Source: Patescibacteria group bacterium (GTDB lineage: Bacteria > Patescibacteriota > Patescibacteriia > Magasanikbacterales > JBBTQS01). From it: a stretch of DNA of 64,000 bases. Position 1 is the stretch's first letter, and each line of letters starts with the position of its first letter. This document shows, in pieces, positions 13,110-43,737 of the stretch. The DNA lies in the NCBI GenBank assembly GCA_038065555.1, contig JBBTQS010000001.1, positions 64,741 through 128,740 on the forward strand, written 5' to 3'. The translations under genes and the position numbers were made by a program. A model generated the notes under the pieces. The model was not told the origin of the DNA. It worked only from the letters and a program-made list of their open reading frames with translations, and did no database searches.

Positions 13110-13183
13110 GCGGGATTAGTACAATGGTAGTATGCTTGCTTCCCAAGCAAGAGACGCGAGTCCGATTCTCGTATCCCGCTCCA
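13110..13183 (+). tRNA. tRNA-Gly (anticodon CCC), CCA encoded
   Basis: GCGGGAT..CTTGCTTCCCAAGCAAG..GAGTCCGATTCTCGT ATCCCGC T CCA. Confidence 0.85.
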
Positions 13184-13335
13184 TTTTTCTTTCTTTGTTT
13201 CAGGAGTACAACGTCGCTCGCCCTCCGGGACTCGCGCGTCTCTATCTCGATTTGCCGGATGTGTATCAACGCCTCGCGGCGTTTTTGGTTGGCCGGCAAA
13301 TCTGCGATGGCCTCCTGAAACAAAGAAAGAAAAAG
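13184..13335. repeat. about 150 bp element bounded by perfect 23 bp inverted repeats, with a nested inner 10 bp inverted repeat, immediately 3' of tRNA-Gly
   Basis: left arm ttttctttctttgtttcaggag and right arm ctcctgaaacaaagaaagaaaa are exact reverse complements; inner gatttgccgg / ccggcaaatc. Confidence 0.5.
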
Positions 13336-13410
13336 AGTATCGGTAGTTGCCCATCATGTGTATAGTGAGTAGGCTAGAGTAGTAAAGTGGTCATCGTTTT
13401 TATTACGTGT

Positions 13411-13863
13411 ATGCAAACCAAACAGTTTTTCGCGCAGAAGGCATTTATTGTTCATGATGGGTCAGTCCTACTCGTGCGCAAAAGTGCTGATGATCCGAGT
13501 CAGGCGGGGAAGTGGGAGGTGCCTGGTGGGCGTATGGAATTCGGTGAAGAGGTGGATGCGCATTTGCAACGTGAAGTGCGTGAGGAAGTGGGGCTCTCAA
13601 TTACTCCAGGCGAACCATTTGCGATCTGGCAGTGGCAGATGAAGCGCGCAGATGCCAGTGGGGAGGAAACATATATGCAAGTCGTTGCTGTTGCGCGCAT
13701 CTGTACCACGTCGGACCCGACGGCGCTTGATGACTCACAGCGCGTTGCCGAAGATTATCTTGCGGAGACTGCGTGGGTGCCATTTGCTGAACTGTTGTCG
13801 TACGATTTGATTCCCAACATGCGAGGTGTCGTAGAAAAGTTTTTGTATTTGCAACGATCTTGA
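13411..13863 (+). CDS. NUDIX hydrolase
   Basis: Nudix box GKWEVPGGRMEFGEEVDAHLQREVREEVGL. Confidence 0.8.
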   Translation: MQTKQFFAQKAFIVHDGSVLLVRKSADDPSQAGKWEVPGGRMEFGEEVDAHLQREVREEVGLSITPGEPFAIWQWQMKRADASGEETYMQVVAVARICTTSDPTALDDSQRVAEDYLAETAWVPFAELLSYDLIPNMRGVVEKFLYLQRS

Positions 13864-13908
13864 CTGTCGGTGTGCCTCTGAGTACTGTTGTAGCTGGGAG
13901 GGCTGAAC

Positions 13909-14256
13909 ATGAGAGCATTCACACGTAAAGAGCTCAAGAAACTACTCCTTGAGGCAGTCCATGCTCACTCCGAGGATCGAATGCGATTTCTCAACGTCTT
14001 GAGTTCCATTCCGGAAACGTCTCTGGAGCACGCAAGCCTCTATCTCTTGCCAGCGGTGGCTATACTGGGGCGGCTGCAGCCGGTAGCTATTCGGCGCGTA
14101 TTTTCACCAGAAGAACGGAGCGAAGGGCTCCTCGCGATGGAGATTTTCCACAGATTTAGTTTGGTTCCGCACGACGGGAGACACGCTGCAGGTGACACGA
14201 CCTTTCCTGCGTTGGTGAGTCGCTTGAAGACGGCACTCGAACAGTCAGAAAACTAA
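13909..14256 (+). CDS. hypothetical protein
   Basis: 115 aa ORF with no recognised motif. Confidence 0.3.
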   Translation: MRAFTRKELKKLLLEAVHAHSEDRMRFLNVLSSIPETSLEHASLYLLPAVAILGRLQPVAIRRVFSPEERSEGLLAMEIFHRFSLVPHDGRHAAGDTTFPALVSRLKTALEQSEN

Positions 14257-14351
14257 CGCGCATATACGCCCCTGGGTAAAACACCTGGGGCCGTGTTGTT
14301 TTTACTACTGTCCTTGCGACGCGCGCATGAATCCCGTAGGGTGAGAGTACT

Positions 14352-14975
14352 ATGTTTACTGGCATTATTCGCGGCAAAGCAACTGTAACTTCAGTGAGTA
14401 GTACGGCGTCGATTCTGCATCTCACGCTCGTGTTTCCAGACAGCGTCACTGAGGGATTGCAGCGTGGTGCAAGTGTGTCGATCGGTGGAGTCTGTCTCAC
14501 AGCAGTCGAGATTGACGGCGCGCAAGTGCAGTTCGATCTCATGAGCGAGACGTTGGAGAAGACTACGCTTGGGACAGCAGCGCCAGGTGTGCAGTACAAT
14601 TTCGAACGGGCGGCAACGTTCGGTGACGAGATTGGTGGGCATCTTCTCTCTGGTCATGTGATGGGAACCGGTGAAGTGACGGCGGTCGAAGACGCGGATG
14701 CGCGATATGTTCTGGCGATTCGCGTGGAGCCAAGTCTCTTTGGGTATATTTTTGCAAAAGGATACATTGCTATTGATGGTGCAAGTCTCACCATTGTTGA
14801 AGCTGATGTTGCAACCAGTGTATTTACGGTGCATCTCATTCCCGAAACATTGCGTATCACCACGCTCGCACGTCTTCGTGTGGGGGACCGCGTGAACATC
14901 GAAGTAGATACTATGACACAGGCAATTGTTGAGACAGTCCAGCGGATGCAACTGGCTACTCGGAGTATCGTTTGA
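14352..14975 (+). CDS. ribE: riboflavin synthase alpha subunit
   Basis: MFTGII start and duplicated lumazine-binding half-domains. Confidence 0.85.
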   Translation: MFTGIIRGKATVTSVSSTASILHLTLVFPDSVTEGLQRGASVSIGGVCLTAVEIDGAQVQFDLMSETLEKTTLGTAAPGVQYNFERAATFGDEIGGHLLSGHVMGTGEVTAVEDADARYVLAIRVEPSLFGYIFAKGYIAIDGASLTIVEADVATSVFTVHLIPETLRITTLARLRVGDRVNIEVDTMTQAIVETVQRMQLATRSIV

Positions 14976-15028
14976 TTGGCCTTTGGCATACGTTCGTGCT
15001 ACAATCGCCATAGTATTTTTCATTCTGT

Positions 15029-15487
15029 ATGCCTGAAATCGTACCGAGTTCTCCTGCTGCGGCTCCTAAAACCGTTCGACCGCGTGTGGTGACATTTATG
15101 TCTATCCTTTTGCTGATTCTTGGGCTCATGCTCATTGCATTCATCATTGGTATTTTTGTGACGGCTCCCGAGGCGCTGGAGCAAACCATCCGCAAACTTC
15201 TCCAGGAAGACAACAAGGCCATTGATCCTGCGGTGTTGTCAGCTGGTGTGCAACAGATTCGCATCTTTTCTCTATTCCTCCTTCCAAATGCGCTGTTGCA
15301 TCTTGCAGCGGGAATCGGGCTCTGGCGCATGCGCAAGTGGGGTATGTATTGCTTCTTTGTACTCTTTGCATGGTCTGCACTTTCCTTTGCTCGCGGTGGG
15401 TACTCATTGTGGGTTGCATGGGTGGTGGTATTGCTCGAAGGAGCAGGTGCTGCGTACCTCTACACCAACAAAACTTCGCTTCGTTGA
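15029..15487 (+). CDS. hypothetical membrane protein
   Basis: four predicted TM helices. Confidence 0.35.
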   Translation: MPEIVPSSPAAAPKTVRPRVVTFMSILLLILGLMLIAFIIGIFVTAPEALEQTIRKLLQEDNKAIDPAVLSAGVQQIRIFSLFLLPNALLHLAAGIGLWRMRKWGMYCFFVLFAWSALSFARGGYSLWVAWVVVLLEGAGAAYLYTNKTSLR

Positions 15488-15590
15488 CAGGGGGAGAGTG
15501 CGTGCGGTAGAATGGCGCACAGTTGTTTTTTCTTCGACACAAATTGAGCGTAGTGAATGGGGCTTCCGGTGAGTGTTTTGCTGGGAGTAC

Positions 15591-15667
15591 GCCACTTTTG
15601 CACCTCGGCTTCGCCTCGGGGCTAAAGTGGCTCCGTTCGGGAATGCTCGACCGAAGGTCGGCATTCC
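15591..15667 (+). other. tRNA-Thr 5' leader carrying a copy of the tRNA-Thr acceptor stem (GCCACTT...AAGTGGCTCC minihelix) plus a nested GC hairpin
   Basis: the minihelix uses the identical 7 bp acceptor stem plus TCC as the downstream tRNA; second hairpin ggaatgc[tcgaccgaaggtcg]gcattcc. Confidence 0.4.
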
Positions 15668-15675
15668 GCTCACTC

Positions 15676-15752
15676 CGCCACTTTAGCTCAGCTGGTAGAG
15701 CAATGCTTTCGTAAAGCAGAGGTCCCGAGTTCGATTCTCGGAAGTGGCTCCA
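15676..15752 (+). tRNA. tRNA-Thr (anticodon CGT), CCA encoded
   Basis: GCCACTT TA GCTCAGCTGGTAGAGC..TTCGTAA..GGTCCCGAGTTCGATTCTCGG AAGTGGC T CCA. Confidence 0.85.
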
Positions 15753-15765
15753 AGAAATGTGCACA

Positions 15766-15805
15766 ATACAGTAGACCCCCGAATTTCCGTTTTGGAAGTT
15801 CGGGG
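15766..15805. terminator. bidirectional hairpin between tRNA-Thr and the convergent gene
   Basis: agacccccgaa / ttcgggggtct 11 bp perfect stem with a small nested stem. Confidence 0.4.
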
Positions 15806-15825
15806 GTCTCTGGTTGTTGGGGGAG

Positions 15826-16791
15826 TCATCTCACCATGCACGCATGAAGTTCGCGAGGTGAGAGATTGACCTCCTGCTCCATCGCTAGATCTGGTGGTGC
15901 GTCTAGGTGGAATCTGGTGACGTAGCTTTGATTCGGACCAGTCACGTTGCGTTGATGGTACGGTCGCAGCTGGGGTTCGCTGCGATGGTCGGCTTCGGTG
16001 GGTAGAAGTTGAACTGTTGTTGGAACGATGACTTTGGCCCACACACGTGCCTTGTTGTCCGGCGTCTCGTCTATGAGGTGGATCGTGGGGTACGCATTGG
16101 TTTTAGGCGGGAAGGAGATTGTCTCGGTGGCTTTGATTACCATCCATCCAACCGCTTCGAGAAGATTGTTCTTCAGGAACTCCGCGTACTTTTGCCCGAA
16201 TGCCAGTGTTTTCGGATAGCTAACCAGGGTTGCCCCGAAGAGGACCCAGCGATAGAGGACTGGTGCGAGTTTTGCGCCGTTTTGTTCGTTGCGCTGTACT
16301 CGCGTCAGCAATCGCTTGCAGATCGCATCTCTGGTTGCATCGCTCATGCTGGGGTGGTGCGCGAGAACAAACCCGATGAGCACACACCCGCGCCAGTCTG
16401 GATAGTGGACTCTGGCGGCATGACACAGATTGTCGTGCCTGAGTTCGAGAGCGTGAAACAGTGCACGATTGGAATCGAAGTGGAGATTGTGTTGTCCCAC
16501 CGCTCGGATCATGAGGTGTCGTGCGGCCTTCATGCCGAGTGATCGAATCGTATTGTATGCCTCGCTGAACTCGGGCTGCGATTCGTCGAGCTCGAGGAAG
16601 AGTAGGACGAGATCGGGGTCGCAGTACGTTCCGATGTGGAACTCGATCTGCTCACGCATGTGGAGAACCGTCCCAGGTTCGAGCGTGAGCATGTAGTCGA
16701 TGAAAAGAATGAATTCAGACTGGATGCCGAAAACATTCCAGGATACCGGATTGGTGAGTTCGGGTTCCTGACTTGCGACTGCGCTGACCAT
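15826..16791 (-). CDS. hypothetical protein (321 aa), weak nucleotidyltransferase-like GTYCDPDLVLL motif
   Basis: long ORF abutting tRNA-Thr; no clear family recognised. Confidence 0.45.
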   Translation of the reverse strand: MVSAVASQEPELTNPVSWNVFGIQSEFILFIDYMLTLEPGTVLHMREQIEFHIGTYCDPDLVLLFLELDESQPEFSEAYNTIRSLGMKAARHLMIRAVGQHNLHFDSNRALFHALELRHDNLCHAARVHYPDWRGCVLIGFVLAHHPSMSDATRDAICKRLLTRVQRNEQNGAKLAPVLYRWVLFGATLVSYPKTLAFGQKYAEFLKNNLLEAVGWMVIKATETISFPPKTNAYPTIHLIDETPDNKARVWAKVIVPTTVQLLPTEADHRSEPQLRPYHQRNVTGPNQSYVTRFHLDAPPDLAMEQEVNLSPRELHACMVR

Positions 16792-17175
16792 GGGGCTACC
16801 TCCATTTGCCGTCAGTGGTTCTGGATTCCATAGCGGAGATCCATTGCTGTCTATCCTAAATCAACAACCAACAATTGACAACGGGCCTTGGTGGAGTGGG
16901 TGGTGAGGCGTGCTATAGTATGTTGTGCAAGGTATGCATTCATTCAACAATTTCTATGGACCAAACGTGGACAATACGAGCAGACAAAACATCGGATCCG
17001 ATTCAGGTTCGGTATGACGAGGCGCGCCATGGGTATGTCATTACGCAAGACCGTATCCATGTGATTTCGGGTGTGACGCATGTTGTTGATGCTGATGTTG
17101 AAGTTGCATTTGTTCCAGAGACACTTGATGCAACGAAGCAGGAGATCGATGCACGATGCTGCGCAAATCAACCTG

Positions 17176-17190: not shown

Positions 17191-17871
17191 ATGATTCAAT
17201 TGCGCAATGTCAGTAAGACGTACCCTGGCGGCACGGTTGGTGTTCGCGATGTGCATTTGGCGGTGAAGCCGGGAGAGTTCGTGTCCATTGTAGGTATGAG
17301 TGGTACAGGCAAGAGTACGCTCATCCGTCTTATTATTGCTGAGGAGAAGCCGACGCGCGGGCAGGTGATTATTGGTGGTTGGGATATTACGAATATCAAG
17401 CAGCGCGAGATTCCGCTTCTGCGTCGTCAGATCGGCGTTATTTTCCAAGATTTCAAATTGTTGCCGAAGAAGACGGTGTACGAAAATGTGTCATTTGCAC
17501 TCGAAGTTGCAGGTGCGCCGTCGCATCGTATTCGTGAAGTGGTTCCGCAGGTGCTTGCTGTTGTGGGACTGGATAATCAAATGCACCGCTATCCGCATCA
17601 GATCTCTGGTGGTGAGGCGCAGCGTGTGGCAATTGCACGAGCGCTCGTGCATCGTCCGAAGATTCTCGTTGCAGATGAGCCTACAGGTAACCTCGATACG
17701 CTCAACACTGCTGATGTGATCGAGATTCTCAAGAAGATTAATGAATTTGGTACAACGATTCTCCTCGTGACGCATAACCGCGAGGTTGTGAACCGTCTCA
17801 AGCGTCGTGTAATCACTATTGATAACGGAACCATCGTGAGTGACCAGAAATCTGGTAAATACGTTCTCTAA
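17191..17871 (+). CDS. ftsE: cell division ATP-binding protein FtsE
   Basis: Walker [13 protein letters not shown] signature ISGGEAQR, Walker B ILVADEP; followed 3 nt later by ftsX. Confidence 0.85.
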
Positions 17872-17874
17872 CCT

Positions 17875-18786
17875 ATGACCGCGTTCCTTCGTGCGATCAA
17901 ATTCGGACTCCAAAATGTGTGGCGCAATTTCGGGCTCTCAGTAACCACGATTTCGATTCTGGTGGTGATGCTCATGAGCGTGAATTTGATTTTTGCGATT
18001 TCGGCGATGACGGGTGCTGCGATTTCGTCCGTGAAGGATCAAGTGGATGTGTCCGTGTTCTTCACCCCTGATGCACCGCAATCCCGTATTGATGAAGTGC
18101 AAAAGGTTGTTGGTGGATTCTCATCAGTGAAGGAAGCGCAGCTCAAGTCGCCAGAGCAGGTGTTGGCAGAGTTCACCACGCGTCATGCAGACAGCGAAGC
18201 GATTCAGTATTCGCTCAAGGAATTGGGGAAGAATCCGCTGGGTGCGACGCTCATCATTCGTACGTACGAGCCTGGGCAATATCGTGACATTGTGAAGGCG
18301 CTCAATATTCCGGAGTACGAAGGTGTGATCGAGTCGCGAACGTTCGATGATACGACGGACATTGTTTCGCGTATTGCCATCATTACAGACCGTGCGCAGA
18401 TGATCGCGTGGGTGGTGACCATTATATTTGCAGTGATCGCCTTCATGATTGTGGCATCGTCGATCCGCGTGGCCATCTTCACCCAGCGCGAGGAGATCAG
18501 TATTCAGAAGCTCGTGGGCGCCGGGAACTGGTTCATTCGCGCGCCGTTTTTCGTCGAAGTGCTGCTCTATTGCACCCTTGCCATGATTCTCGCCATCGTG
18601 ATACTGTATTTCGGCATCACGGTGACTGACCCGTACATCCGGACGCTCTTCGGAACGTACCAGTTCAGCCTGATGGGATACTTCATGACCCAGGGCCCGC
18701 TCCTCTTCGGCGCGCAATTCGCTTCGCTGATTGTGCTGTGCTCGCTCAGTGGGTTCATGTCGATGCGTCGGTTCTTGCGCGTGTAG
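17875..18786 (+). CDS. ftsX: cell division permease-like protein FtsX
   Basis: N-terminal TM helix, periplasmic domain, three C-terminal TM helices; downstream of ftsE. Confidence 0.8.
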   Translation: MTAFLRAIKFGLQNVWRNFGLSVTTISILVVMLMSVNLIFAISAMTGAAISSVKDQVDVSVFFTPDAPQSRIDEVQKVVGGFSSVKEAQLKSPEQVLAEFTTRHADSEAIQYSLKELGKNPLGATLIIRTYEPGQYRDIVKALNIPEYEGVIESRTFDDTTDIVSRIAIITDRAQMIAWVVTIIFAVIAFMIVASSIRVAIFTQREEISIQKLVGAGNWFIRAPFFVEVLLYCTLAMILAIVILYFGITVTDPYIRTLFGTYQFSLMGYFMTQGPLLFGAQFASLIVLCSLSGFMSMRRFLRV

Positions 18787-18836: not shown

Positions 18837-18907
18837 TCCGGGATCGTCTAATGGTAGGACATCGCCCTTTGGAGGCGAGTATCTTGGTTCGAATCCAAGT
18901 CCCGGAG
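18837..18907 (+). tRNA. tRNA-Gln (anticodon TTG), CCA not encoded
   Basis: TCCGGGA..TCGCCCTTTGGAGGCGA..GGTTCGAATCCAAG TCCCGGA G; U1:A72 as in bacterial tRNA-Gln. Confidence 0.85.
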
Positions 18908-18947
18908 CACATTCGAGATAAGCTTGAGTCTGAAACACAAAATTTCT

Positions 18948-19493
18948 ATGAAAATAGTTGTTGGATCAGCAAGCAAGCGAAAAATTAGCATTGTTGAGAA
19001 AATTGCTCAGCAAATATTCAAGGACGCTGTAATTGATGTGGTTGGGTACGCTGCAAAGTCTGGCGTGCCAGATACTCCGTATGGTAGGGAGACTTTCGAA
19101 GGTGCAAAGAATAGAGTGCTAGACGCTCAGATCAAAATGTTGGGTGCTGATTGTTATGTAGGCTTGGAAAGCGGCTTGGTAGAACGGTATACACACGTGT
19201 TTGAAGAAGCTTGGTGTGTACTCTTGTTACAAGGTAGAGAGTATTACGGGTATTCGAGTGGTTTGAAGGTTCCGGATTGTATACTTAAGAAAATGGATGA
19301 ACTAGGCAAGCCGCACTCGGAGGTAATGAGATTGATTGAAGAGCAGCACGATAAAACATCAAATGATACGTGGGGTACGTACTCAGGCGGTCTTATTGTT
19401 AGAGAAGTTAGCCTGGGGGAAGCTGTACGCAATGCGTTTATTCAGGGCGTTGAATCCGAGAATTCATTGTTTTGTGAAGTATCTAAAACTTAG
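18948..19493 (+). CDS. inosine/xanthosine triphosphatase (YjjX/Maf-Ham1-like non-canonical NTPase)
   Basis: MKIVVGSASKRKI, SGVPDTPYGRETFEGAKNRVLDA; in the low-GC islet. Confidence 0.55.
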   Translation: MKIVVGSASKRKISIVEKIAQQIFKDAVIDVVGYAAKSGVPDTPYGRETFEGAKNRVLDAQIKMLGADCYVGLESGLVERYTHVFEEAWCVLLLQGREYYGYSSGLKVPDCILKKMDELGKPHSEVMRLIEEQHDKTSNDTWGTYSGGLIVREVSLGEAVRNAFIQGVESENSLFCEVSKT

Positions 19494-19514
19494 AGATGTT
19501 GATAGGGGGTGATT

Positions 19515-19523
19515 TGGTACAAT
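19515..19523 (+). promoter_or_regulatory. extended -10 box TGGTACAAT upstream of the ASCH gene
   Basis: TGnTACAAT about 24 nt before ATG 19547. Confidence 0.3.
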
Positions 19524-19546
19524 CAAATCGTAGACCAAATCGATAT

Positions 19547-19873
19547 ATGAAAACACTAAAATTCAGTGACACTCTCGTCCCTCTCGTTCTCTCAGGAGCA
19601 AAAGACTCAACCTGGAGACTTTTTGACGATAAGGATTTGCGGAAAGGAGATGAACTCTCACTCGTCAACAAAGACACAGGGGAGCAATTCGCAAAGGCGC
19701 ATATTGTTTTTGTGCAAGAAAAGCAGCTCAACAAACTTGATGACACTGATCAAGACGGCCACGAGCTATATGAAAGTGAGGAGAAGATGCTCGAGGATTT
19801 TCGGAAGTATTATGGTGATCGCGTCACACTTGAAAGTATGGTGAAGGTCATCAAATTCAAGCTCGCTGAGTAA
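19547..19873 (+). CDS. ASCH domain protein
   Basis: MKTLKFSDTLVPLVLSGAKDSTWRL ASCH beta-barrel start. Confidence 0.5.
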   Translation: MKTLKFSDTLVPLVLSGAKDSTWRLFDDKDLRKGDELSLVNKDTGEQFAKAHIVFVQEKQLNKLDDTDQDGHELYESEEKMLEDFRKYYGDRVTLESMVKVIKFKLAE

Positions 19874-19879
19874 CAAACT

Positions 19880-20239
19880 ATGAAATCATACACAACCATT
19901 AGTGCCTATCTCAAAGGCGCGCCCAAGTATGCGCAACCCAAGCTCCAAGAAATGAGAGCACTGTGTCAGGAACATGTTCCCGATGCAGAAGAAGTCATCC
20001 GCTACGGCATGCCCACCATCCAACTTCGGGGCAAGAATTTCGTGCACTTCGCCGCAATGAAAGGCCATCTCGGATTCTATCCAACACCTTCGGGCGTCAC
20101 AGCATTCGAAGAGCAACTCAAGAAGCAGGAGATCAGCTACTCGAAGGGGTGTATCCGATTCGCATATGACAAGCCGCTTCCCGTGGCGTTTATCAAAAAG
20201 ATTATTATCTTCAGGTTAAAGGAAGAACGGAGCCGCTAG
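19880..20239 (+). CDS. DUF1801/YdhG-family protein
   Basis: YdhG-like block RYGMPTIQLRGKNFVHFAAMKGHLGFYP. Confidence 0.55.
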   Translation: MKSYTTISAYLKGAPKYAQPKLQEMRALCQEHVPDAEEVIRYGMPTIQLRGKNFVHFAAMKGHLGFYPTPSGVTAFEEQLKKQEISYSKGCIRFAYDKPLPVAFIKKIIIFRLKEERSR

Positions 20240-20323
20240 TATAGACGTTTTTACAAAGAGTTTATGAACCACACCTTCTGGCTCGCAAGGAAAGATAGCG
20301 TTGAGTATTGAAAGGTAAAACGA

Positions 20324-20362
20324 AGACCCACACCGATCGTACGAAGGGTGTGGGTCTTTGTT
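20324..20362. terminator. bidirectional rho-independent terminator
   Basis: agacccacacc / ggtgtgggtct stem flanked by a T-run. Confidence 0.6.
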
Positions 20363-20374
20363 GTGTTGATGCCG

Positions 20375-21670
20375 TTACGCGTTCTTCTTGGCTCGAGAGG
20401 TCTCCTTGTGCCCATCGACAAGTTTCTGGAACTCGTCGATGGGGAAGTGGATACCGTGGCGACCGCAGAATTCTGAGAGGAGATCTTCTGGGATCCCCAG
20501 CTCAGATTTCAAGGTGAAGGCATGGGTGGCGCTGATCTCCTGTGCCGCAGCGATCTTGTCGAGGTGTTTCTTGCTGCGTTGCAGCACACGCACGAAGCTG
20601 TCGCGTTCCGATTGGATCCAGCCGTTGACAGCTGATTCGTGACGGAGCGTGAGTTCGCGATTGTCGATTGCGACGCAGAGCGAATGCACCCAGCCTGTGA
20701 GAGCCGTGAGCTCGACTCCGTGGAGTTGTGCTCCGATCATCGTTCGTCTGAGAGCTCTGCGAAGCAGATACCCCTCCCGAACGTTGCTTGGAACCACCCC
20801 TTCCCGGATCATCAGGATTGCCGTCTTCAGATGATCGAGGATGATTCGGCTCCACCTCGTGTCACCAACGCTCTCCTGGATGAGTCGGAAGGAGGTGGAG
20901 TACTGATCGATTTCGTGGATCGACGCGCGATCCTGCAGGATCATCGAGAATCGTTCCATCCCCGCGCCCGTGTCTACGCACTTCATGGGGAGATTGGTGA
21001 TAGCACCGTTCTCGTCCTTGAAGTATTGCATGAAGACGCCAGCGTTCCAGATCTCGATGTGTCGACCGGGAACGAGCACATCATCCGTTTCTTTCTCGGC
21101 GAAGGATTCGCCTCGATCGAAGAAGACTTCGGTGCACGGACCGCACGGACCGCTCGTTCCGGCGGGTCCCCAGAAGTTGTCCTCCGGAGGGCGGCCGATG
21201 ATGTGGTCGCGAGGGAGGAAGCGTTCCCAGATGCGTGCGGACTCTTCGTCGCTGGGCACACCAGGGAGGCTGTCGTCGGCATTGAACACGGTCGCGTACA
21301 AGCGATCCGCAGGAATGCCGAACTCTCCAGTGATGAGCTCGAATGCGAGTTCGATCGCTCGCTCCTTGAAGTAGTCACCGAATGACCACGAACCCATCAT
21401 TCGGAAACTCGTACCATGGTAGGAGTCTCCGACACTCTCGAAGTCCACGAAGCGGATGCAATCCTGGACGTTGGTGAGGCGTGGGTAGGGTGGTGTGGCC
21501 TGCCCTGTGAAGTAGGGCTTCATAGGGGCCATGCCGGAGTTGATGAACATCAGGGTAGGATCGTCCTTCGGCATGATGCCAGAGGGCGATATATACCGGT
21601 GTTCGCGATTAAGGAAATGCTCCAGGAAGGTCTGGCGCACCTCCTCGGCCGTTTTGTATGGTAATTTCAA
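20375..21670 (-). CDS. alaS: alanine--tRNA ligase N-terminal fragment (aminoacylation and tRNA-recognition domains only; no editing or C-Ala domain)
   Basis: AlaRS signatures TAEEVRQTFLEHF, DPTLMFINSGM, SFRMMGSWSFGDYFK, FWGPAGTSGPCGPCTEVFFD, EIWNAGVFMQYF, VDTGAGMERF, GVVPSNVREGYLLRRALRR; start chosen at TTG 21670 with a GAGGAGG RBS (ORF track extends to 21736). Confidence 0.8.
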   Translation of the reverse strand: MKLPYKTAEEVRQTFLEHFLNREHRYISPSGIMPKDDPTLMFINSGMAPMKPYFTGQATPPYPRLTNVQDCIRFVDFESVGDSYHGTSFRMMGSWSFGDYFKERAIELAFELITGEFGIPADRLYATVFNADDSLPGVPSDEESARIWERFLPRDHIIGRPPEDNFWGPAGTSGPCGPCTEVFFDRGESFAEKETDDVLVPGRHIEIWNAGVFMQYFKDENGAITNLPMKCVDTGAGMERFSMILQDRASIHEIDQYSTSFRLIQESVGDTRWSRIILDHLKTAILMIREGVVPSNVREGYLLRRALRRTMIGAQLHGVELTALTGWVHSLCVAIDNRELTLRHESAVNGWIQSERDSFVRVLQRSKKHLDKIAAAQEISATHAFTLKSELGIPEDLLSEFCGRHGIHFPIDEFQKLVDGHKETSRAKKNA

Positions 21671-21743
21671 AGAAGCCTCCTCTTTGAGGGGTTGAAGAGC
21701 GTGAGGAACGATATAGTATTTTTTGTTTTTTGGCAAGAGGTTG

Positions 21744-21772
21744 TTGACGTTGTTACTCTTCTGCGCTAGATT
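21744..21772 (+). promoter_or_regulatory. sigma70-like promoter TTGACG-17-TAGATT for the AKR-rSAM-alaS2 operon
   Basis: -35/-10 pair with 17 nt spacer in the AT-rich divergent intergenic region; AGGAGG RBS before ATG 21816. Confidence 0.4.
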
Positions 21773-21815
21773 TTATTGGGTTCGTTCGTTAAAAATACAA
21801 GATTTAGGAGGGGGT

Positions 21816-22556
21816 ATGGAATGGTTTGAAAGGCTCTACTTTGGCACGTGGCAGCTGGGTGGGGGTCAGTTTAGAGCGTTGTCGGAGTATCAGAAGGAGA
21901 GACTCCTGAGTGCTGCAATCATTGCGGGTATCTGTCGCTTTGACACCGCTGCTGTGTATGGAGGAGGGGCCGTGGAGGAACTCCTTGGTCGCCATCTGCA
22001 ACAGCAAGCGGTGATTGTGACTAAGATTCCTGCAATTAGAAAGCCAAATCCGGAAAAGCAGGAGCCCATTAACGAGTTCTACCCGACCGATCACATGCGT
22101 CGGTGTGTCATGAATTCGTTGGATCGACTGAGGAGGGCGCAAGTAGACACCATCTTGTTGCATAATTGGTCGCCATCATGGGCGGTCGGTGCACAAGATG
22201 TGTTGGATTGCCTGAACAGCATGAAGCAGGAAGGCCTCACACGGAGAATTGGCATTTCGTTGCCCAATGACTTTGGATTCCAATCGGGCGCGCGCCTCTT
22301 TCCGTGGATGGATGTGGTAGAGATGCCATATAACCCGGAACAGGCATGGGCACGAAAGCTACTTCCTGCGATGCAAGGATGTGGTGTAGAAGTCTTGCTG
22401 AGAAGTCTGTTTGGGCAAGGGCGCTTTCTTACGACTGACACCGCTGAATCGTTGATCGCGAATGCAGGTGAACTTGGAACGTCTGTGGTCATCGGTATGA
22501 CCACAGAGGAGCAGATCAAACGAAACATCAACTGTCTCAAAAGAGGTGCGCAATGA
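21816..22556 (+). CDS. aldo/keto reductase
   Basis: AKR N-terminus (LYFGTWQLGGG...FDTAAVYGGG); stop overlaps the rSAM start (ATGA). Confidence 0.7.
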   Translation: MEWFERLYFGTWQLGGGQFRALSEYQKERLLSAAIIAGICRFDTAAVYGGGAVEELLGRHLQQQAVIVTKIPAIRKPNPEKQEPINEFYPTDHMRRCVMNSLDRLRRAQVDTILLHNWSPSWAVGAQDVLDCLNSMKQEGLTRRIGISLPNDFGFQSGARLFPWMDVVEMPYNPEQAWARKLLPAMQGCGVEVLLRSLFGQGRFLTTDTAESLIANAGELGTSVVIGMTTEEQIKRNINCLKRGAQ

Positions 22557-23764
22557 ACTATTTCGACGCTGCAAACACAGAAACATTCGTCACTGTGCCT
22601 GGAATGACGACTGGTCGAGAATTCGCACTGCGGGAATACTCGTATGGAGTGCTGGTACCTGACAAGAACCATCCGCTCTCCTGTGTGAGTGTTTCGAACA
22701 GCTCGCTCAGTATAGATCTCTGGGTCGGTTGTGCGTGGCAGTGTCGCTATTGCCATGTGCAGGGTACGAACCAAGACCTGGCTGAGCAAGGAACAATGCC
22801 TCGTAGACCCCGTCTACGCACTGCATTCACGATCGGGCAGATCGTCGATGCGTTGGTGGAGCATCCGTTCTTCGTGGCGGATGTCTCTGTCATCAGTATC
22901 GGAACCGCCAGTACTGAACCGTTCGCACCGGCGATTGTAGACAGTACATTCGACATCATGAACGAGTTCGTGCGACGTGGACTGCGCAATCCATTCTGGA
23001 TCGTGACCAAAGGCGGGATTCCGAAGGGGAGAAAGGTGGATTTCGCCCGCATCGTAAGTGCATCACGCGGACTCATGATCTCACTCTGTTGGGCTGGTAA
23101 CCCAAAGGAGATCGAGCCGATGCGCAATAACCGCTTCCTCAACGTTGAGGAAGCAAAGGAGGCTGGTGCGACAATCGCCTGGTACCTCCGGCCAATCGTG
23201 CCGGAGTGGTCTGGGAGTTCGGAACACATTGACATGATGATGCTGTGGGTCAAACAACACTACAGCGGCATCATTGATATGATCGTTCCGGGCGGACTTC
23301 GGTGGACTGAGGGTATCGAGAATGGCCTGGTGGAGATTCACAAACTCGCCATGCCAGACATTTCTCGTGGAGATAACGAGAAATCACTGCCTCAGGAGCT
23401 GGTGGATTCCATCTTCGCACTGAGTGGTCAGTACTTCCCGGGCGTCCCCGTGTACCTCAAGTCTTCCTGTGCGCTCACACATATGCTCAAGATTCCGAGC
23501 ATTACATCAGTGCACGCGTTCGCGAGAGCTGAGTGTGAAGCATCGCGATGTCCAGCCGAACAGCGCAGGATCTGCGCAAAGGGTGCTGCCTACGATATGA
23601 CGGTTGAGAAAGCTCAGGACATTCTCCGTCGTCTCGGTGTACCTGCTCGTGTGCTGGGGTGGGATGGTACGGGTGGTCTCATCACATCCCCGGCACTGAG
23701 CGAGTTCGCGTACGCTATCAGGCAGACGATCTTCAAAAGCTTGGCTGAAGGAGGTGCCGCATGA
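22553..23764 (+). CDS. radical SAM protein (SPL/COG1533-like)
   Basis: CxxxCxxC cluster GCAWQCRYCHV at residues 60-67; 4-nt ATGA overlaps at both ends. Confidence 0.7.
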   Translation: MNYFDAANTETFVTVPGMTTGREFALREYSYGVLVPDKNHPLSCVSVSNSSLSIDLWVGCAWQCRYCHVQGTNQDLAEQGTMPRRPRLRTAFTIGQIVDALVEHPFFVADVSVISIGTASTEPFAPAIVDSTFDIMNEFVRRGLRNPFWIVTKGGIPKGRKVDFARIVSASRGLMISLCWAGNPKEIEPMRNNRFLNVEEAKEAGATIAWYLRPIVPEWSGSSEHIDMMMLWVKQHYSGIIDMIVPGGLRWTEGIENGLVEIHKLAMPDISRGDNEKSLPQELVDSIFALSGQYFPGVPVYLKSSCALTHMLKIPSITSVHAFARAECEASRCPAEQRRICAKGAAYDMTVEKAQDILRRLGVPARVLGWDGTGGLITSPALSEFAYAIRQTIFKSLAEGGAA

Positions 23765-24885
23765 TCAACCGTGAGCAGATCAAGCGCTTTTTCGAACATC
23801 ACGGCTTCGTGTGGCGAGAAGGTGCTTCGATCACGAGCAGCAACTATAAATTGCTGTTCAACATTTCGGGCGGTGTGGTGTATGAGAGGATTATCTCGGG
23901 CAGAGAACGACCCGAAGTATCCAGAGTTGCATCCGTGCAAACCTGTCTAAGAACAGATGGGTGGAATCGGATCGGTCATTCTGGAAAGCATCACCTCGCC
24001 TTTGAAATGCTCGGTCATTTCTCTTTCTACGAAGGCAATGAAGCCGATGTGAAAGAGAGGATGATCGGAAGTGCGTGGCGATATCTGACAGAATGTCTAG
24101 GTATCAACCAAGACACACTGTTCGCAACAGTGCATCCGCAAGACAGTACGTCGCAACGGATTTGGAGTAATTTGGGGGTAGAGACAAGTGAAAACGCTTG
24201 TAATACCACCTATACTCCATGCAAAAACCGATGTGGTGTGCGAACAGAAATCGTCTGGCGAAATCCAACTACAGGGAACATCGTGGAGCTCTGGAACTTG
24301 GTTTTCACTGAGTTCCAGGGTCAAACGCTCTTCGAATTTCCCTTGGACAGGATAGCTGCCGACTCTGGCGCGAGTATCGATCGGCTCGTTACTGCCGTTG
24401 AAGGTAAGTCGAGCGATTACGATAACTCAAATTGGGTCGACATCATCGGCTCTATCGAGGCGCAGTCGAATGCTCCGGACCGGATATTGGTGTGTCGACT
24501 GGCAGATATGGGTAAGGCGTCGGTACTTCTCGTGGAGCAAGGCCTTCGGCCGGGGAACAAGGCTGCGGAGTATGTGCTTCGGAGGATCATCCGAGAAGCA
24601 TATCTTCTTTGCAAGCAGGTACAGATTCCCTTCGAGGTATTTGTCAAACTTGCGAGCAGTCGCTGGTGTCCAACCCCAGCAATGTCAGAGGTTTTTGTGC
24701 AGGAAGCAACTAGATTCGATTCTGCACTGCGGCGCGGCATGGCAGAATACCGAAAAACAGTTCTCCGTGCACAAGGACCTTTGTCTCACGAAACCATCAA
24801 GCAACTCTCGGCAACGTTTGGGCTTCCGGAAGCACTCATTGTAGTGGAGGAGTCCAAGCGTGCTATACGAGGTGACCATGAGTAG
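23761..24885 (+). CDS. divergent AlaRS catalytic-domain paralog (374 aa)
   Basis: collinear with AlaRS motifs but drifted: EQIKRFFEHHGF, KHHLAFEMLGHFSFYEG, PCKNRCGVRTEIVW, ELWNLVFTEFQ, EYVLRRIIREA. Confidence 0.65.
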   Translation: MINREQIKRFFEHHGFVWREGASITSSNYKLLFNISGGVVYERIISGRERPEVSRVASVQTCLRTDGWNRIGHSGKHHLAFEMLGHFSFYEGNEADVKERMIGSAWRYLTECLGINQDTLFATVHPQDSTSQRIWSNLGVETSENACNTTYTPCKNRCGVRTEIVWRNPTTGNIVELWNLVFTEFQGQTLFEFPLDRIAADSGASIDRLVTAVEGKSSDYDNSNWVDIIGSIEAQSNAPDRILVCRLADMGKASVLLVEQGLRPGNKAAEYVLRRIIREAYLLCKQVQIPFEVFVKLASSRWCPTPAMSEVFVQEATRFDSALRRGMAEYRKTVLRAQGPLSHETIKQLSATFGLPEALIVVEESKRAIRGDHE

Positions 24886-25633
24886 TATTGCTCATGAAAT
24901 AACCCGTGTTTTGCAGCCCCTCGCAGGCTTGAACGCGGTGTTGCATGTTGGCCTGGATCGGAACGTATCACATGGTAGGGTTGATCTCTTAGCAGGTTGT
25001 GTTGACGGCGATATCAAACGGTACGCAATCGATATAATTTGTCTGCTAAAGAGCTGGGACCCATCCGGAGAGTTTTCTGTCTGCGATGACAGTGTACGGT
25101 TTGATACATCGGCTGGGACAGGTGGGGTCGCGGTGTGCGATCCAATTGCCCTTGTTGAAGGTATCAGCGGCTGGATCGAAGGAAGAATGCTCAGTGGGCA
25201 AAGACGTTCGTGGGCCGTCGGGTATTGGTTACCTGAAGCATTGTGCGGGGACCTGGCTACAGCCAGTGTGCTTCATGATGCTACGGGTATAGCAGATCGG
25301 GTTTGTCAACTCGTATCACCATATCCAGAGAAGCTCTCGAATAGTATTGTTCAGTGGTGTTCTGAAGAGATCAGGTTGAAGTTAGTAACACTTCGTTCAC
25401 TGTCACAAGCAGTAGCGTTGGTGGAACACCGGCTTTGCCTGGCGGACATTGCTGCGGCACTCGTGAGGTTGGCATTCGCTCGGGGACGACGCTACCTGCG
25501 TGGATTTCGGTCTCTCGAACAACAAGTTGTGTTCCTGTCACCAGCCGATCGGGCAGTCTATGATCTGGCATCTGAGCTCTTGCTCGGATCGACGGCAGAA
25601 TCGACGATTGAACGGGTCAGGAGCGTGATTTAG
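24860..25633 (+). CDS. hypothetical protein (last gene of the operon)
   Basis: overlaps the preceding gene by 26 nt; no clear family. Confidence 0.4.
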   Translation: MLYEVTMSSIAHEITRVLQPLAGLNAVLHVGLDRNVSHGRVDLLAGCVDGDIKRYAIDIICLLKSWDPSGEFSVCDDSVRFDTSAGTGGVAVCDPIALVEGISGWIEGRMLSGQRRSWAVGYWLPEALCGDLATASVLHDATGIADRVCQLVSPYPEKLSNSIVQWCSEEIRLKLVTLRSLSQAVALVEHRLCLADIAAALVRLAFARGRRYLRGFRSLEQQVVFLSPADRAVYDLASELLLGSTAESTIERVRSVI

Positions 25634-25663
25634 AACTGGAGTATGTGAACACATGCTCCAGTT

Positions 25664-26269
25664 TTATTTTAGGAGTGTTTTTCCGTTCGCATCAATAATG
25701 ATCGCTTCTGAATTTCGTATACGATCAATAACCACATTGTGTTTTAGTTCAAATGCGCGAGCAGCGTCCTCAAGTGCGGGGGTGTAATGTGGAAGCGGTG
25801 TGTTTGGGATGATACAAAGCCCTGTAAAGTCAGTAAGGTTCATCTCGATGGGGTCTGAGAGTATTTCACCGGCAACTGCAATCGATGGTCCGAGGATGAT
25901 ACTTCCAGCACTTACACCTATATACATTCCACCACGATCTAGAAGTGATACGATCGATGTGCGGAAATTTGATGACCGTGCAAAAGCGAGTAGTCGGTAG
26001 GTATTTCCACCGCTTACATAAATAACATCGTAGTTTGTGAGGTCTGCTACTGGTTCGGATGCAAGATCGACAAAATCAACAGTACAAAATTTGAGCGATT
26101 GAAATTGTGACTTTGCTCGCTCAGAGTATTTACCATGGTCTGGCCCTTCTGCAGTTGTTATGATTGCAACAGAGGGGGTTTGATGGTTGGAAAACGTGTG
26201 TTGAACCGCAAAAAAAGTATGACCCTGCGTCAGTCCTGTCGAAGTGAGTATGATCTTTCCGTGGTTCAT
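25664..26269 (-). CDS. peptidase S51 (dipeptidase E/cyanophycinase-like)
   Basis: VIYVSGGNTYRLL and IGVSAGSII serine-nucleophile block. Confidence 0.6.
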   Translation of the reverse strand: MNHGKIILTSTGLTQGHTFFAVQHTFSNHQTPSVAIITTAEGPDHGKYSERAKSQFQSLKFCTVDFVDLASEPVADLTNYDVIYVSGGNTYRLLAFARSSNFRTSIVSLLDRGGMYIGVSAGSIILGPSIAVAGEILSDPIEMNLTDFTGLCIIPNTPLPHYTPALEDAARAFELKHNVVIDRIRNSEAIIIDANGKTLLK

Positions 26270-26360
26270 GTGGAGATGGTAGCATAGAGATCAGACTGTG
26301 TCAGTAACCAATAAATATTCTGTGTACTATTTTGGTTGCAGCTCCTAATTTTATACTGCT

Positions 26361-26852
26361 ATGAACCGCACCACCTACCTCGCCGGCGGCTGCTTCTGGG
26401 GCCTCGAAGAGCTCATGCGAACACAAAAGGGTGTTATCGATACCACCGCAGGCTACACAGGTGGTGACAATGACAATCCGACCTACGAGAACCACCCCGG
26501 CCACGCCGAAGCACTCGAGATCGTCTACGACGACACACAGACAGATTTCTGGCATTTGCTCGATTTCTTTTTTCAGATTCACAACCCAACAACGCGCAAC
26601 CGACAAGGGAATGATGTTGGTACATCGTATCGCTCTGCGATTTTCTATCAGAACGACACGGAGCGCGAACAGGCGCAGCAATTCATCGAACTTGTCGACG
26701 CATCAGGACGGTGGCCGTCACCAGTGGTGACCACACTCGAGCCATTCACGAAATTCTACAGCGCCGAATCCCACCACCAAGACTATCTCCAGAAATACCC
26801 AGATGGCTACACCTGCCATCGCATCCACTTTGGTAGTTATCTGGCGAAGTGA
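26361..26852 (+). CDS. msrA: peptide methionine sulfoxide reductase MsrA
   Basis: GGCFWG active-site motif near the N-terminus. Confidence 0.9.
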
Positions 26853-42641: not shown

Positions 42642-42729
42642 GGCGTCTCTCCTCGTATGGTGTTGATAGCGCGAAATTGCGCCGGCGCAAGTCTATCAGG
42701 CGTTGACGTACTTGTCTATAAGAGGTAGC

Positions 42730-43737
42730 ATGCGCGCCATGACAACGCCTGTAGAACCGATTATTTCCAAACCATTTCGCTGGGCTGACCAAGCTCGGCC
42801 GATTTTGGCATTGTCGCCAATGGCGGACATGACAGACAGTCCTTTTTGTCTCGTTGCAAAGGAGCGTGGAGCGAAAATCATGTTCCGTGAAATGGTCTCT
42901 GCAGAGGCAGTGGTTCGCGGGAATGAGAAGACATTGGGGATGACGGCATTTGATGAGCGCGAGCGTCCGCTGATTCAGCAGATTTTTGGTGCAGAGCCGC
43001 ACACGATGGCAGAGGCTGCGCGTATCATCGAAGAGAAATATCATCCTGACGGCATTGATATCAACATGGGGTGCCCAGTGTACAAAATCGTACACAACTT
43101 CAATGGCGCATGCTTGATGAAGGATCATGTGCGTGCAGCTGCGATTATTCGTGCCATGAAAGCAGTTATCACGGTTCCACTCTCCGTGAAGATTCGTCTT
43201 GGCTGGTCGCGATCAGATGAAGCGCTTACATTTATTCAACATCTCGAAGCTGCTGGCGCTGATCTTGTTACGGTGCATGGACGCACGAAGGAACAGGGCT
43301 ATTCAGGCAAATCAGATTGGGAAATGATCGGACGAGTGGTCAAGCAAGTGCAGATTCCTGTGCTTGCAAATGGCGACGTGCATCAACCAGAACAGGTCCC
43401 GCAAATTCTTGACGTTACTGGTGCGGCTGGTGTGCTCATTGCACGCGGAGCACTCGGCAATCCGTGGTTCTTCCAACACGCAGAAGAAGTACTTGCAACA
43501 GGAAGTATCCAGACACCCGTGTCACTGCACGAACGATTGACGACAATGCTCCAGCATGCGCAGTTGCATATCGAACACTATGGCGAACGCGGGATCGTCA
43601 CGTTTCGCAAACACATCAGCTGGTATCTCAAAGGACTCGTAAATATCAAACCATTTCGCGAGCAAGCAATGAAGGTGCAGTCACTTGATGAACTTGTGGC
43701 ACTCACGGCGCACTTCTTGACGACGGTGGTGGAGTAG
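42730..43737 (+). CDS. dusB: tRNA-dihydrouridine synthase
   Basis: LSPMADMTDSPFCL, INMGCPV and the Dus TIM-barrel throughout. Confidence 0.85.
   Translation: MRAMTTPVEPIISKPFRWADQARPILALSPMADMTDSPFCLVAKERGAKIMFREMVSAEAVVRGNEKTLGMTAFDERERPLIQQIFGAEPHTMAEAARIIEEKYHPDGIDINMGCPVYKIVHNFNGACLMKDHVRAAAIIRAMKAVITVPLSVKIRLGWSRSDEALTFIQHLEAAGADLVTVHGRTKEQGYSGKSDWEMIGRVVKQVQIPVLANGDVHQPEQVPQILDVTGAAGVLIARGALGNPWFFQHAEEVLATGSIQTPVSLHERLTTMLQHAQLHIEHYGERGIVTFRKHISWYLKGLVNIKPFREQAMKVQSLDELVALTAHFLTTVVE

Follow-up and report, generated by a model that had tools for sequence, protein, structure and literature searches.

Sites at which accessory genes come and go between conserved neighbours have been described in Pseudomonas, Escherichia coli and Acinetobacter as core-gene-flanked hot spots of integration or defence, or regions of genome plasticity, in many cases adjacent to a tRNA gene, among them the core defence hot spots of P. 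aeruginosa (PMC10250203) and the defence-island hot spots of E. coli (PMC10121019). For the Patescibacteria, genomic islands are known from aquifer genomes, one of which bears a complete type I restriction-modification (R-M) system (PMC12455944). Those islands were predicted genome by genome from composition and were inferred to be exchanged mostly among Patescibacteria, and a search of that text returns no mention of tRNA or of hot spots. Here we consider a 64-kb stretch of DNA (the window) from the roughly 0.9-Mb genome of a groundwater member of the Patescibacteria (candidate phyla radiation, CPR), and within it the 1.4 kb directly downstream of a tRNA-Gln gene (18910-20320), which holds three small genes for a putative house-cleaning nucleoside triphosphatase (NTPase), an ASCH-domain protein and a DUF1801 protein. 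A preliminary description had taken this segment for a low-GC islet of three genes, the remnant of an old or decayed tRNA-targeted insertion that ends at a strong terminator. Comparison with sister genomes now shows a variable hot spot without an integrase at the 3' end of tRNA-Gln, which in one genus occurs in at least four states of occupancy. The feature is thus of a known kind, a core-gene-flanked hot spot, in an unusual phylum, and the trio itself is an ordinary resident operon, one gene of which is exchangeable.

The site becomes apparent when the window is set beside two tiers of relatives: a genus tier (contigs L175 to L179 and L093, with L176, L177 and L178 being three independent assemblies) and a distant tier (L082, L084-L086 and L087, whose FtsX proteins are 61-67% identical in amino acid sequence to that of the window). 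The conserved left flank consists of ftsE (17191-17871) and ftsX (17875-18786, forward strand; Pfam FtsX and FtsX_ECD), and is followed by tRNA-Gln(UUG) (18837-18908, forward strand; called by ARAGORN, 62.8 bits against the Rfam tRNA model), the left anchor of the variable slot. FtsX of the window is 91-93% identical to its counterparts in L175-L178, and 91-99% identical to those of L175, L176 and a further contig, L081; the tRNA matches at 72 of 72 positions in L175-L178. In every relative whose contig reaches past ftsX, tRNA-Gln comes next. FtsE-FtsX-tRNA-Gln stands on the left in nine loci, and L179 shows the tRNA 3' end only, beginning with the last 35 nucleotides of the gene, identical to the window. 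Nucleotide homology between the window and L175-L178 ends at 18909, one base past tRNA-Gln, and restarts at 19546, the base just ahead of the ASCH start codon. The segment in between (18910-19545, forward strand; 636 bp) consists of the NTPase gene (18948-19493) with a spacer of 38 bp before it and one of 53 bp after it. L175-L178 have nothing equivalent to it and carry type I R-M islands of 7.8-8.7 kb between the same two breakpoints. To the right of the slot, the ASCH gene is conserved in L175-L179, L093 and the window, and DUF1801 follows it in all of these except L175; in L175-L178 the ASCH ortholog directly follows the cargo.

What lies between these flanks differs from lineage to lineage. 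In L176-L178 the cargo is an 8.7-kb type I R-M operon with a DUF2130 gene and an AriA/PARIS-like ATPase, and in L175 it is another type I R-M operon, 7.8 kb long, which encodes a Ymh protein and a Shedu SduA nuclease. These R-M systems are not related to each other (HsdM 50% and HsdR 39% identical in amino acid sequence), though FtsX is 94% identical between the genomes that carry them. In both operons (L176 11150-19697; L175 11130-18820) the extra defence-type genes sit among hsdM, hsdS and hsdR, the ATPase of L176 being AriA/Gabija/Septu-like and the additions of L175 matching Hypoth_Ymh and SduA_C. PADLOC families match the AriA-like ATPase (1.5e-23) and SduA (2.2e-12). In L179 the tRNA 3' end is followed by 1.9 kb of small genes (32-44% GC, including a methyltransferase gene) and then by NTPase-ASCH-DUF1801-MsrA-TspO, so that the variable cargo of this contig lies between tRNA-Gln and the NTPase. 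From a point 2 bp ahead of the NTPase start codon, L093 matches L179 at 97% identity; upstream of that point it has MazG-like, Schlafen-like helicase and DUF3761 genes, of which the helicase matches the PADLOC families PDC-S41, Nhi and AbiO. This contig stops short of the tRNA. Neither L092 nor the start of L093 contains a tRNA remnant.

Four distinct states (window, L176-L178, L175 and L179) are thus seen directly after tRNA-Gln within the genus. L093 provides a fifth, located before the NTPase and with its left junction outside the contig, and the distant relatives provide three more. The NTPase, which the window and L179/L093 have and L175-L178 lack, belongs to the variable zone at the level of the genus and to the conserved side within the L179/L093 species. 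In the window the slot is near-empty: it contains the NTPase gene only, starting 38 bp from the tRNA, and this occupant is not of a defence type, the NTPase having no PADLOC match. The distant tier shows the same left border, with a cation ATPase and further genes leading to FtsE-FtsX-tRNA-Gln, and has Dus-HAD-TK on the right; only 0.8-5 kb of unrelated genes lie there between tRNA-Gln and dus, among them, in L084, genes for a zeta toxin and a PIF1 helicase. The zeta toxin gene stands with a small open reading frame (ORF) directly after tRNA-Gln (L084 11201-11922). In the window, dus (42703-43737, forward strand) is the first gene to the right of tRNA-Gln that is common to L082, L084 and L087 (58-80% amino acid identity by tblastn), and the 23.8 kb in between (18909-42702) consist of lineage-specific genes without mobile-element genes. 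They include small metabolic and stress genes for MsrA, TspO, a rhodanese, a CMP-kinase-like protein, AHSA1, GFA, PfkB, GIY-YIG and DUF4153 proteins. A Gp49/HigB-like toxin with a helix-turn-helix antitoxin lies directly after DUF1801 in L176 (20498-20912) and in L178.

How does this site compare with those described before? Like the hot spots of Pseudomonas and E. coli, it has the same two anchors recurring around differing accessory and defence cargo, the cargo is AT-rich, and a tRNA forms one border. The flanking genes recur, the content between them differs and the cargo of relatives is rich in defence genes. Unlike those hot spots, the tRNA-Gln site shows no integrase, transposase or attachment (att) repeat in any sampled occupancy state; it resides in a Patescibacteria genome of ~0.9 Mb, its borders are the last base of a tRNA and a start codon, and in the window the slot holds a single housekeeping-type gene. 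With the islands of PMC12455944 the locus shares the phylum, the aquifer habitat and the presence of type I R-M islands, located here in sister genomes, whereas the evidence at tRNA-Gln is comparative: one site, several occupants and divergent alleles in its flank. With classical islands and prophages that are targeted to tRNA genes by tyrosine integrases, it shares an insertion point at the tRNA 3' end and adjacent DNA of atypical composition, but it lacks both of their defining marks, an integrase and an attL/attR duplication.

The search for such marks covered Pfam domains of integrases and transposases in all ORFs of at least 90 amino acids called between 18.9 and 42.7 kb, and found none; precomputed Pfam tables for the cargos of L175-L179, L093 and L084 contain none either. 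When the 22-nucleotide 3' end of the tRNA was searched against the 64 kb with up to 3 mismatches, it matched the tRNA itself only, the next best match being 11 nucleotides long and at chance level, and tRNA-derived att-like repeats in the loci of eight relatives amounted to chance matches only. On the absence of an integrase and of a duplicated tRNA 3' end, the preliminary description was right. Its placing of an insertion at the 3' end of tRNA-Gln holds in so far as there is a breakpoint at 18909 and the content differs in every relative; what does not hold is a 1.4-kb unit of three genes, nor does its right end at the terminator, because the right breakpoint lies at 19546, at the ASCH start.

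The compositional anomaly which gave rise to the islet idea is real. The segment 18910-20320 has a GC content of 44.1%, against a mean of 52.9% for 1411-bp windows (sd 2.5%, z = -3.55), and is the lowest such window in the 64 kb, the runner-up outside the region having 47.6%. Positions 18941-19000 fall to 31.7%, and a GC content of one third or less is found in only 0.4% of 60-bp windows. The surroundings had been put in the high 50s, which is correct for the immediate flanks (56-59%) and too high for the window as a whole. The dip is spread unevenly over the NTPase, ASCH and DUF1801 genes and their spacers. Among the 74 window genes on which the gene-level comparison was run, the NTPase gene (GC 43%) has the second lowest GC at third codon positions (GC3 0.40) and the fourth most deviant codon usage (z 6.6). 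The ASCH gene (GC 43.7%, GC3 0.49) is ordinary in codon usage (z 1.5), DUF1801 (GC 49.7%, GC3 0.60) is native-like, and the three short intergenic pieces of the region have 34-38% GC. Clearly atypical composition is confined to the NTPase gene, with ASCH mildly low and DUF1801 native-like, and the argument for a foreign origin from composition carries over to the NTPase, missing at this place in L175-L178, and not to DUF1801. The slot itself has 42.1% GC and lies inside the 39-46% range of the cargo of relatives, as compared to about 52% for resident genes. Two genes elsewhere in the window are more extreme: that for a peptidase S51 (25664-26269, reverse strand) has the lowest GC3 of the 74 (0.356, z -2.8), beyond the NTPase, and an ORF for 211 amino acids (48255-48890, reverse strand) has the most deviant codon usage relative to the expectation for its amino acid sequence (z = 10).

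Composition is accompanied by an unusual pattern of divergence. When proteins are clustered at 90% identity or above, FtsE, FtsX and MsrA join those of other genomes, and the NTPase, ASCH and DUF1801 clusters contain this genome only. The ASCH protein of the window is an outlier (75-79% amino acid identity to L176, L175 and L093, which are 83-86% identical among themselves), and its GC3 of 0.49 contrasts with 0.64-0.66 in four orthologs representing three distinct sequences. In a three-taxon comparison of sites between the window, L176 and L093, the ASCH gene has 43 sites unique to the window, 28 unique to L176 and 25 unique to L093, whereas DUF1801 has 44 unique to L093 and 24 and 21 in the others; the pattern switches between the two genes (Fisher p = 0.0005). 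An excess of window-specific changes from GC to AT marks the 5' three-quarters of the ASCH gene (19547-19790, forward strand; the right end is approximate, being taken from 60-bp bins). Within genes, each 60 bp contains 8-10 window-unique substitutions up to 19786 and 1-5 beyond, with a ratio of GC>AT to AT>GC changes of 29:9. In a distance tree the ASCH relatives form a clade without the window in 200 of 200 bootstraps, and the window is sister to this clade in 199. Identity to L179 tends to rise away from the slot, if not monotonically: at the nucleotide level it is 68% for the NTPase, 78% for ASCH, 79% for DUF1801, 84% for MsrA, 75% for TspO, 77% for the rhodanese and 92-95% for genes 10-14 kb away. 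At third codon positions those distant genes are 85-92% identical to L179, as compared to 44% for the NTPase.

How might such a pattern arise? The window's NTPase gene and the 5' three-quarters of its ASCH gene are a divergent, AT-shifted allele that was probably imported by homologous recombination. We envision, as the most economical scenario, that cargo and flank alleles would be exchanged together by homologous recombination, anchored by the invariant tRNA-Gln on the left and by ASCH/DUF1801 on the right, and that the right crossover in the window lineage may have occurred near 19790. The low GC itself stems from an AT-rich, very divergent NTPase allele of the variable zone together with the AT-shifted 5' part of ASCH. 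To this reading as a whole, a housekeeping operon at the edge of an integrase-less hot spot with its low GC due to divergent alleles in and near the slot, we assign a probability of about 0.62. The occurrence of type I R-M systems with PARIS-like or Shedu modules, without a visible integrase, is consistent with transformation and homologous recombination as the main exchange route. A stronger version, in which the locus is a dedicated recombinase-free site of cassette exchange where defence and housekeeping genes are swapped by natural transformation and flank homology, and in which ASCH (as a candidate eraser of N4-acetylcytidine, ac4C) and the NTPase are functionally tied to the tRNA or the cargo, strikes us as improbable.

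Several observations weigh against this reading. The search for a donor allele turned up nothing closer than 80% for ASCH or 69% for the NTPase, so that import is an indirect conclusion. AT-biased local acceleration would, by way of a long branch, also place the window's ASCH at the base of the distance tree, and the branching order of the three lineages is uncertain. The GC>AT bias extends to DUF1801 (16:4), and the GC3 of the window's FtsE is below that of its relatives, which implies that part of the AT shift is lineage-wide. On average, NTPase homologs follow the GC content of their hosts (mean difference -0.017). Every relative is a contig from a metagenome, and the link between L081 and L179 is drawn from two contigs of one sample, both of which end inside the tRNA.

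These points make locally accelerated, AT-biased evolution a serious rival to import. In its purely vertical form, the order tRNA-Gln-NTPase-ASCH-DUF1801 would be ancestral, L175-L178 would have lost the NTPase upon arrival of the R-M islands, and low GC would reflect gene-specific constraint combined with local AT-biased mutation. Such a history accommodates the window's NTPase being sister to that of L093/L179 in a distance tree, the low GC of the NTPase gene in L093, L179 and L092 as well, the bias in DUF1801 and FtsE just mentioned, and the position of the window's ASCH as, even so, the closest outgroup to the genus clade (199/200). It sits poorly with the sharp fall of window-unique substitutions near 19790 and the switch of site patterns between ASCH and DUF1801 (p = 0.0005), with the reduced GC3 of ASCH relative to its orthologs, and with a third-position identity to L179 that is about half as high in the NTPase gene as in genes 10-14 kb off. 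Moreover, acceleration alone predicts that sites unique to L093 exceed those unique to L176 in ASCH as they do in DUF1801 (44 vs 24), but they number 25 and 28. On balance we regard this explanation as unlikely, if deserving of consideration. By contrast, the islet proper, a 1.4-kb tRNA-targeted integrative element that comprised all three genes and whose integrase and att sites later disappeared, is largely refuted and in our view very improbable. It would account for a composition minimum and a synteny breakpoint that both begin at the tRNA 3' end, and for the absence of the trio after tRNA-Gln in the distant L082, L084 and L087. An integrative element should, however, be absent as a whole from close relatives, and ASCH is found in L175-L179 and L093 and DUF1801 in L176-L179 and L093, as orthologs of native composition that belong to the conserved side at the right breakpoint; in the window, too, the composition of DUF1801 is native. 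In L179 and L093 the entire trio is conserved and continues syntenically into MsrA-TspO; for ASCH and DUF1801 this largely amounts to the finding in relatives that had been named as speaking against an islet, and in L175-L178 the look for an empty site revealed a conserved ASCH gene, with DUF1801 beside it in L176-L178, and other cargo in place of the NTPase. Neither the window nor the cargo of any relative has an integrase or att repeat, and the terminator is part of a neighbouring 6.1-kb block that relatives lack.

Might the arrangement in the window simply be a chimeric join, at the tRNA, of two populations that share its sequence? Contigs of independent assemblies do end inside tRNA-Gln (L081 ends at a position equivalent to 18868, L091 starts at 18848 and L179 at 18875), so that the assembly graph branches there, as is expected when co-occurring populations have the tRNA in common and its flanks not. 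L081 and L179 stem from one sample and may be a single genome; in that case its nucleotide identity to the window would be 92% in ftsEX, against 68-78% in the NTPase and ASCH genes. The window arrangement is, however, spanned at 99.95% identity by a 394-kb contig of another assembly, the exact NTPase protein occurs on five contigs, one of them 881 kb long, and the L176 arrangement recurs in three separate assemblies, which leaves an artefact with next to no probability. Two contigs from the Hainich aquifer (L090 and L091) match the window at 99.95-100% identity, and the NTPase is 100% identical to a protein annotated by NCBI on the 881-kb contig of a metagenome-assembled genome named 'Patescibacteria group bacterium'. 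FtsX homologs with source names belong to Magasanikbacteria and Paceibacteria; one relative with an FtsX identity of 70% (P0002) has a contig that stops at the ftsX stop codon.

The GC dip beside the tRNA is accordingly to be read as the flank of a live variable site and not as a decayed islet, and only the comparison of sister genomes tells the resident from the exchangeable genes. More interesting than the trio itself are two points: a CPR genome has a cassette site with sharp borders and no integrase, and the alleles in the flank of this site are divergent. The locus is a well-delimited example of defence turnover in the ultra-small genomes of CPR/Patescibacteria at one tRNA-anchored site, and constitutes a natural marker locus for strain-resolved studies of Patescibacteria in groundwater.

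What do the three genes encode? The identities given in the preliminary description all hold in Pfam searches. The NTPase (18948-19493, forward strand; 181 amino acids) is of the YjjX/DUF84 type and a putative house-cleaning phosphatase for inosine or xanthosine triphosphate (ITP/XTP). It matches NTPase_I-T (PF01931) at positions 1-160 of 162 with 95.9 bits (cut-off 25; 2.9e-27), and its relatives in the PDB by phmmer are YjjX (1u5w, 1u14) and VC0702, at 2e-10 to 6e-7. It resembles E. coli YjjX (1u5w) by a family-level sequence match and in size, with 181 amino acids against chains of 172-185, and differs in scoring below the NCBIfam equivalog cut-offs (64.9 vs 175), so that membership is at family level only and a YjjX-type ITP/XTP phosphatase activity is predicted from its sequence. 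In a set of 41 loci of more than 3 kb and at least 45% identity, which includes near-duplicates, the gene tends to be below flank GC in higher-GC hosts; the notion that it is universally low in GC was rejected, however, since its GC tracks that of the flanks over these loci. In Patescibacteria contigs of higher GC (L092 43-576, L140, L148 and L108) the gene is often far below its flanks, with 43% against 57% in L092, and in low-GC hosts it is slightly above them, a pattern for which frequent transfer from the low-GC majority, or else a compressed range of composition, may be responsible. Two further ideas found little support. The NTPase gene is the first after a tRNA in 4 of 48 other lineages (binomial P 0.03-0.19), which is not robust; the cases (L108/L111, L114/L115, L120 and L143) place it 4-106 bp downstream of a same-strand tRNA for Glu, Ser, Gly or Trp. 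NTPase and ASCH genes as a widely recurring pair are likewise unsupported: outside the window, direct adjacency is confined to L093 and L179, and an ASCH gene lies 0.5-2.8 kb from the NTPase gene in three other metagenomic loci, the near-identical L112 and L113, and L116.

The ASCH protein (19547-19873, forward strand; 108 amino acids), encoded by the gene with which the genus-conserved part begins on the right of the slot, starts in agreement with all orthologs and with the call of NCBI. It matches the Pfam ASCH family with 28.7 bits (cut-off 21.2; 2.3e-6), and an AlphaFold2 model (mean pLDDT 91.2) has the E. coli YqfB structures 9kyf and 9kyh as its top PDB matches (TM-score 0.74-0.79, E 1e-6). 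YqfB is an ASCH-domain ac4C amidohydrolase, with a catalytic Lys-Thr-Glu triad and an oxyanion Arg formed by K21, T24, E74 and R26 (PMC6972931), and a 2026 preprint reports removal of ac4C from tRNA by diverse ASCH proteins. Alignment with hhalign places K19, T22 and R24 of the window protein onto K21, T24 and R26 of YqfB, in a sequence whose numbering agrees with PMC6972931. K19 and T22 are invariant and R24 is more than 90% conserved in 44 ASCH homologs; H72, E76 and Y89 match H70, E74 and Y89 of YqfB by manual alignment only. The two proteins hence share the ASCH fold, the Lys-Thr-Arg motif and a similar length (108 vs 103 amino acids), but are only 16% identical in the structural alignment. 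The fold and motif suggest that the protein is a candidate ac4C amidohydrolase, belonging to a candidate YqfB-like family that is apparently widespread in the phylum; 703 homologs were found, and those few that have a source name are labelled Patescibacteria.

The third gene, DUF1801 (19880-20239, forward strand; 119 amino acids), encodes a YdhG-like protein and is a resident of native composition. It matches PF08818 with 52.9 bits (cut-off 27.2; 5e-14), and its relatives in the PDB (9t2w, 2kl4 and 2oc6) are YdhG-type structural-genomics proteins. It is 86% identical in amino acid sequence to its ortholog in L176 and 82% to those in L093/L179, and the ASCH and DUF1801 orthologs in sister genomes taken together are 76-86% identical. 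Pairs of ASCH and non-canonical NTPase genes had also been said to recur in nucleotide-surveillance and defence-adjacent contexts. No PADLOC family matches the NTPase, ASCH or DUF1801 proteins at E <= 0.001, and a search for viral relatives of the NTPase and ASCH proteins gave none; the defence flavour belongs to the cargo of relatives. The operon is best read as serving nucleotide and nucleoside sanitation or salvage, and not as a mobile element, which fits the dependence of CPR organisms on salvage. Folding revealed no convincing terminator-like hairpin in the spacer between the tRNA and the NTPase gene. Because there is neither such a hairpin nor room for a promoter ahead of the NTPase gene, the three genes are likely co-transcribed with tRNA-Gln or read through from it.

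A better candidate for a discrete insertion than the trio lies next to it. Between DUF1801 and msrA the window has a lineage-specific block of 6.1 kb (20246-26358), which is absent from L179 and L093, where msrA follows within about 20 bp after DUF1801. By Pfam and NCBIfam it encodes a paralog of the catalytic domain of alanyl-tRNA synthetase (AlaRS; reverse strand), an aldo/keto reductase, a radical S-adenosylmethionine (SAM)-like protein, a second AlaRS-like protein (forward strand), a protein of 251 amino acids and, at its right end, the peptidase S51 mentioned above (reverse strand). A 24-nucleotide direct repeat brackets the block, its left member (20262-20285, forward strand) being a degenerate copy of the 5' end of msrA, the right member (26359-26382). 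The two are identical at 19 of 24 positions, a score reached in 0 of 2000 shuffles, and the match is the unique best one in the window. The region 20240-20375, proposed earlier as the place to look for a degenerate att repeat, does therefore contain a repeat, but one that marks the 6.1-kb block and not the trio. The same applies to the terminator, placed at 20324-20362 in the preliminary description. A strong hairpin at 20319-20362, between the convergent DUF1801 and AlaRS-like genes, is very stable (-31.2 kcal/mol on the forward and -25.3 on the reverse strand; z -6.3 and -5.4) and likely a bidirectional terminator, although a simple scan for T-tract terminators was negative. It is not a boundary in the history of the trio, because it lies inside the block that L179 and L093 lack.

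The two AlaRS-like proteins (20375-21736, reverse strand, 453 amino acids, covering positions 1-431 of 847 of the alaS model; and 23761-24885, forward strand, 374 amino acids, positions 8-400 of 847) comprise the aminoacylation domain only and score below the alaS equivalog cut-off. They flank the reductase and the radical-SAM-like gene, and conceivably these four could form a tRNA- or amino-acid-dependent biosynthetic set. A search of genome contigs with an AlaRS-like protein of the block returned distant AlaRS genes only, at no more than 39% identity. In the gene table of L090 the ORF of 453 amino acids is missing, and shadow ORFs appear on the opposite strand in its place. Variation next to tRNA genes is also seen on the far side of ftsE: within 13110-17080, the stretches after tRNA-Gly and tRNA-Thr vary among relatives as well, and after tRNA-Gly there is a NUDIX hydrolase gene in the window, L175 and L176, and genes for a dihydroorotate (DHO) dehydrogenase, a CDP-OH transferase and a Na/H exchanger in L087. 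Several tRNA 3' flanks may thus be variable in this lineage.

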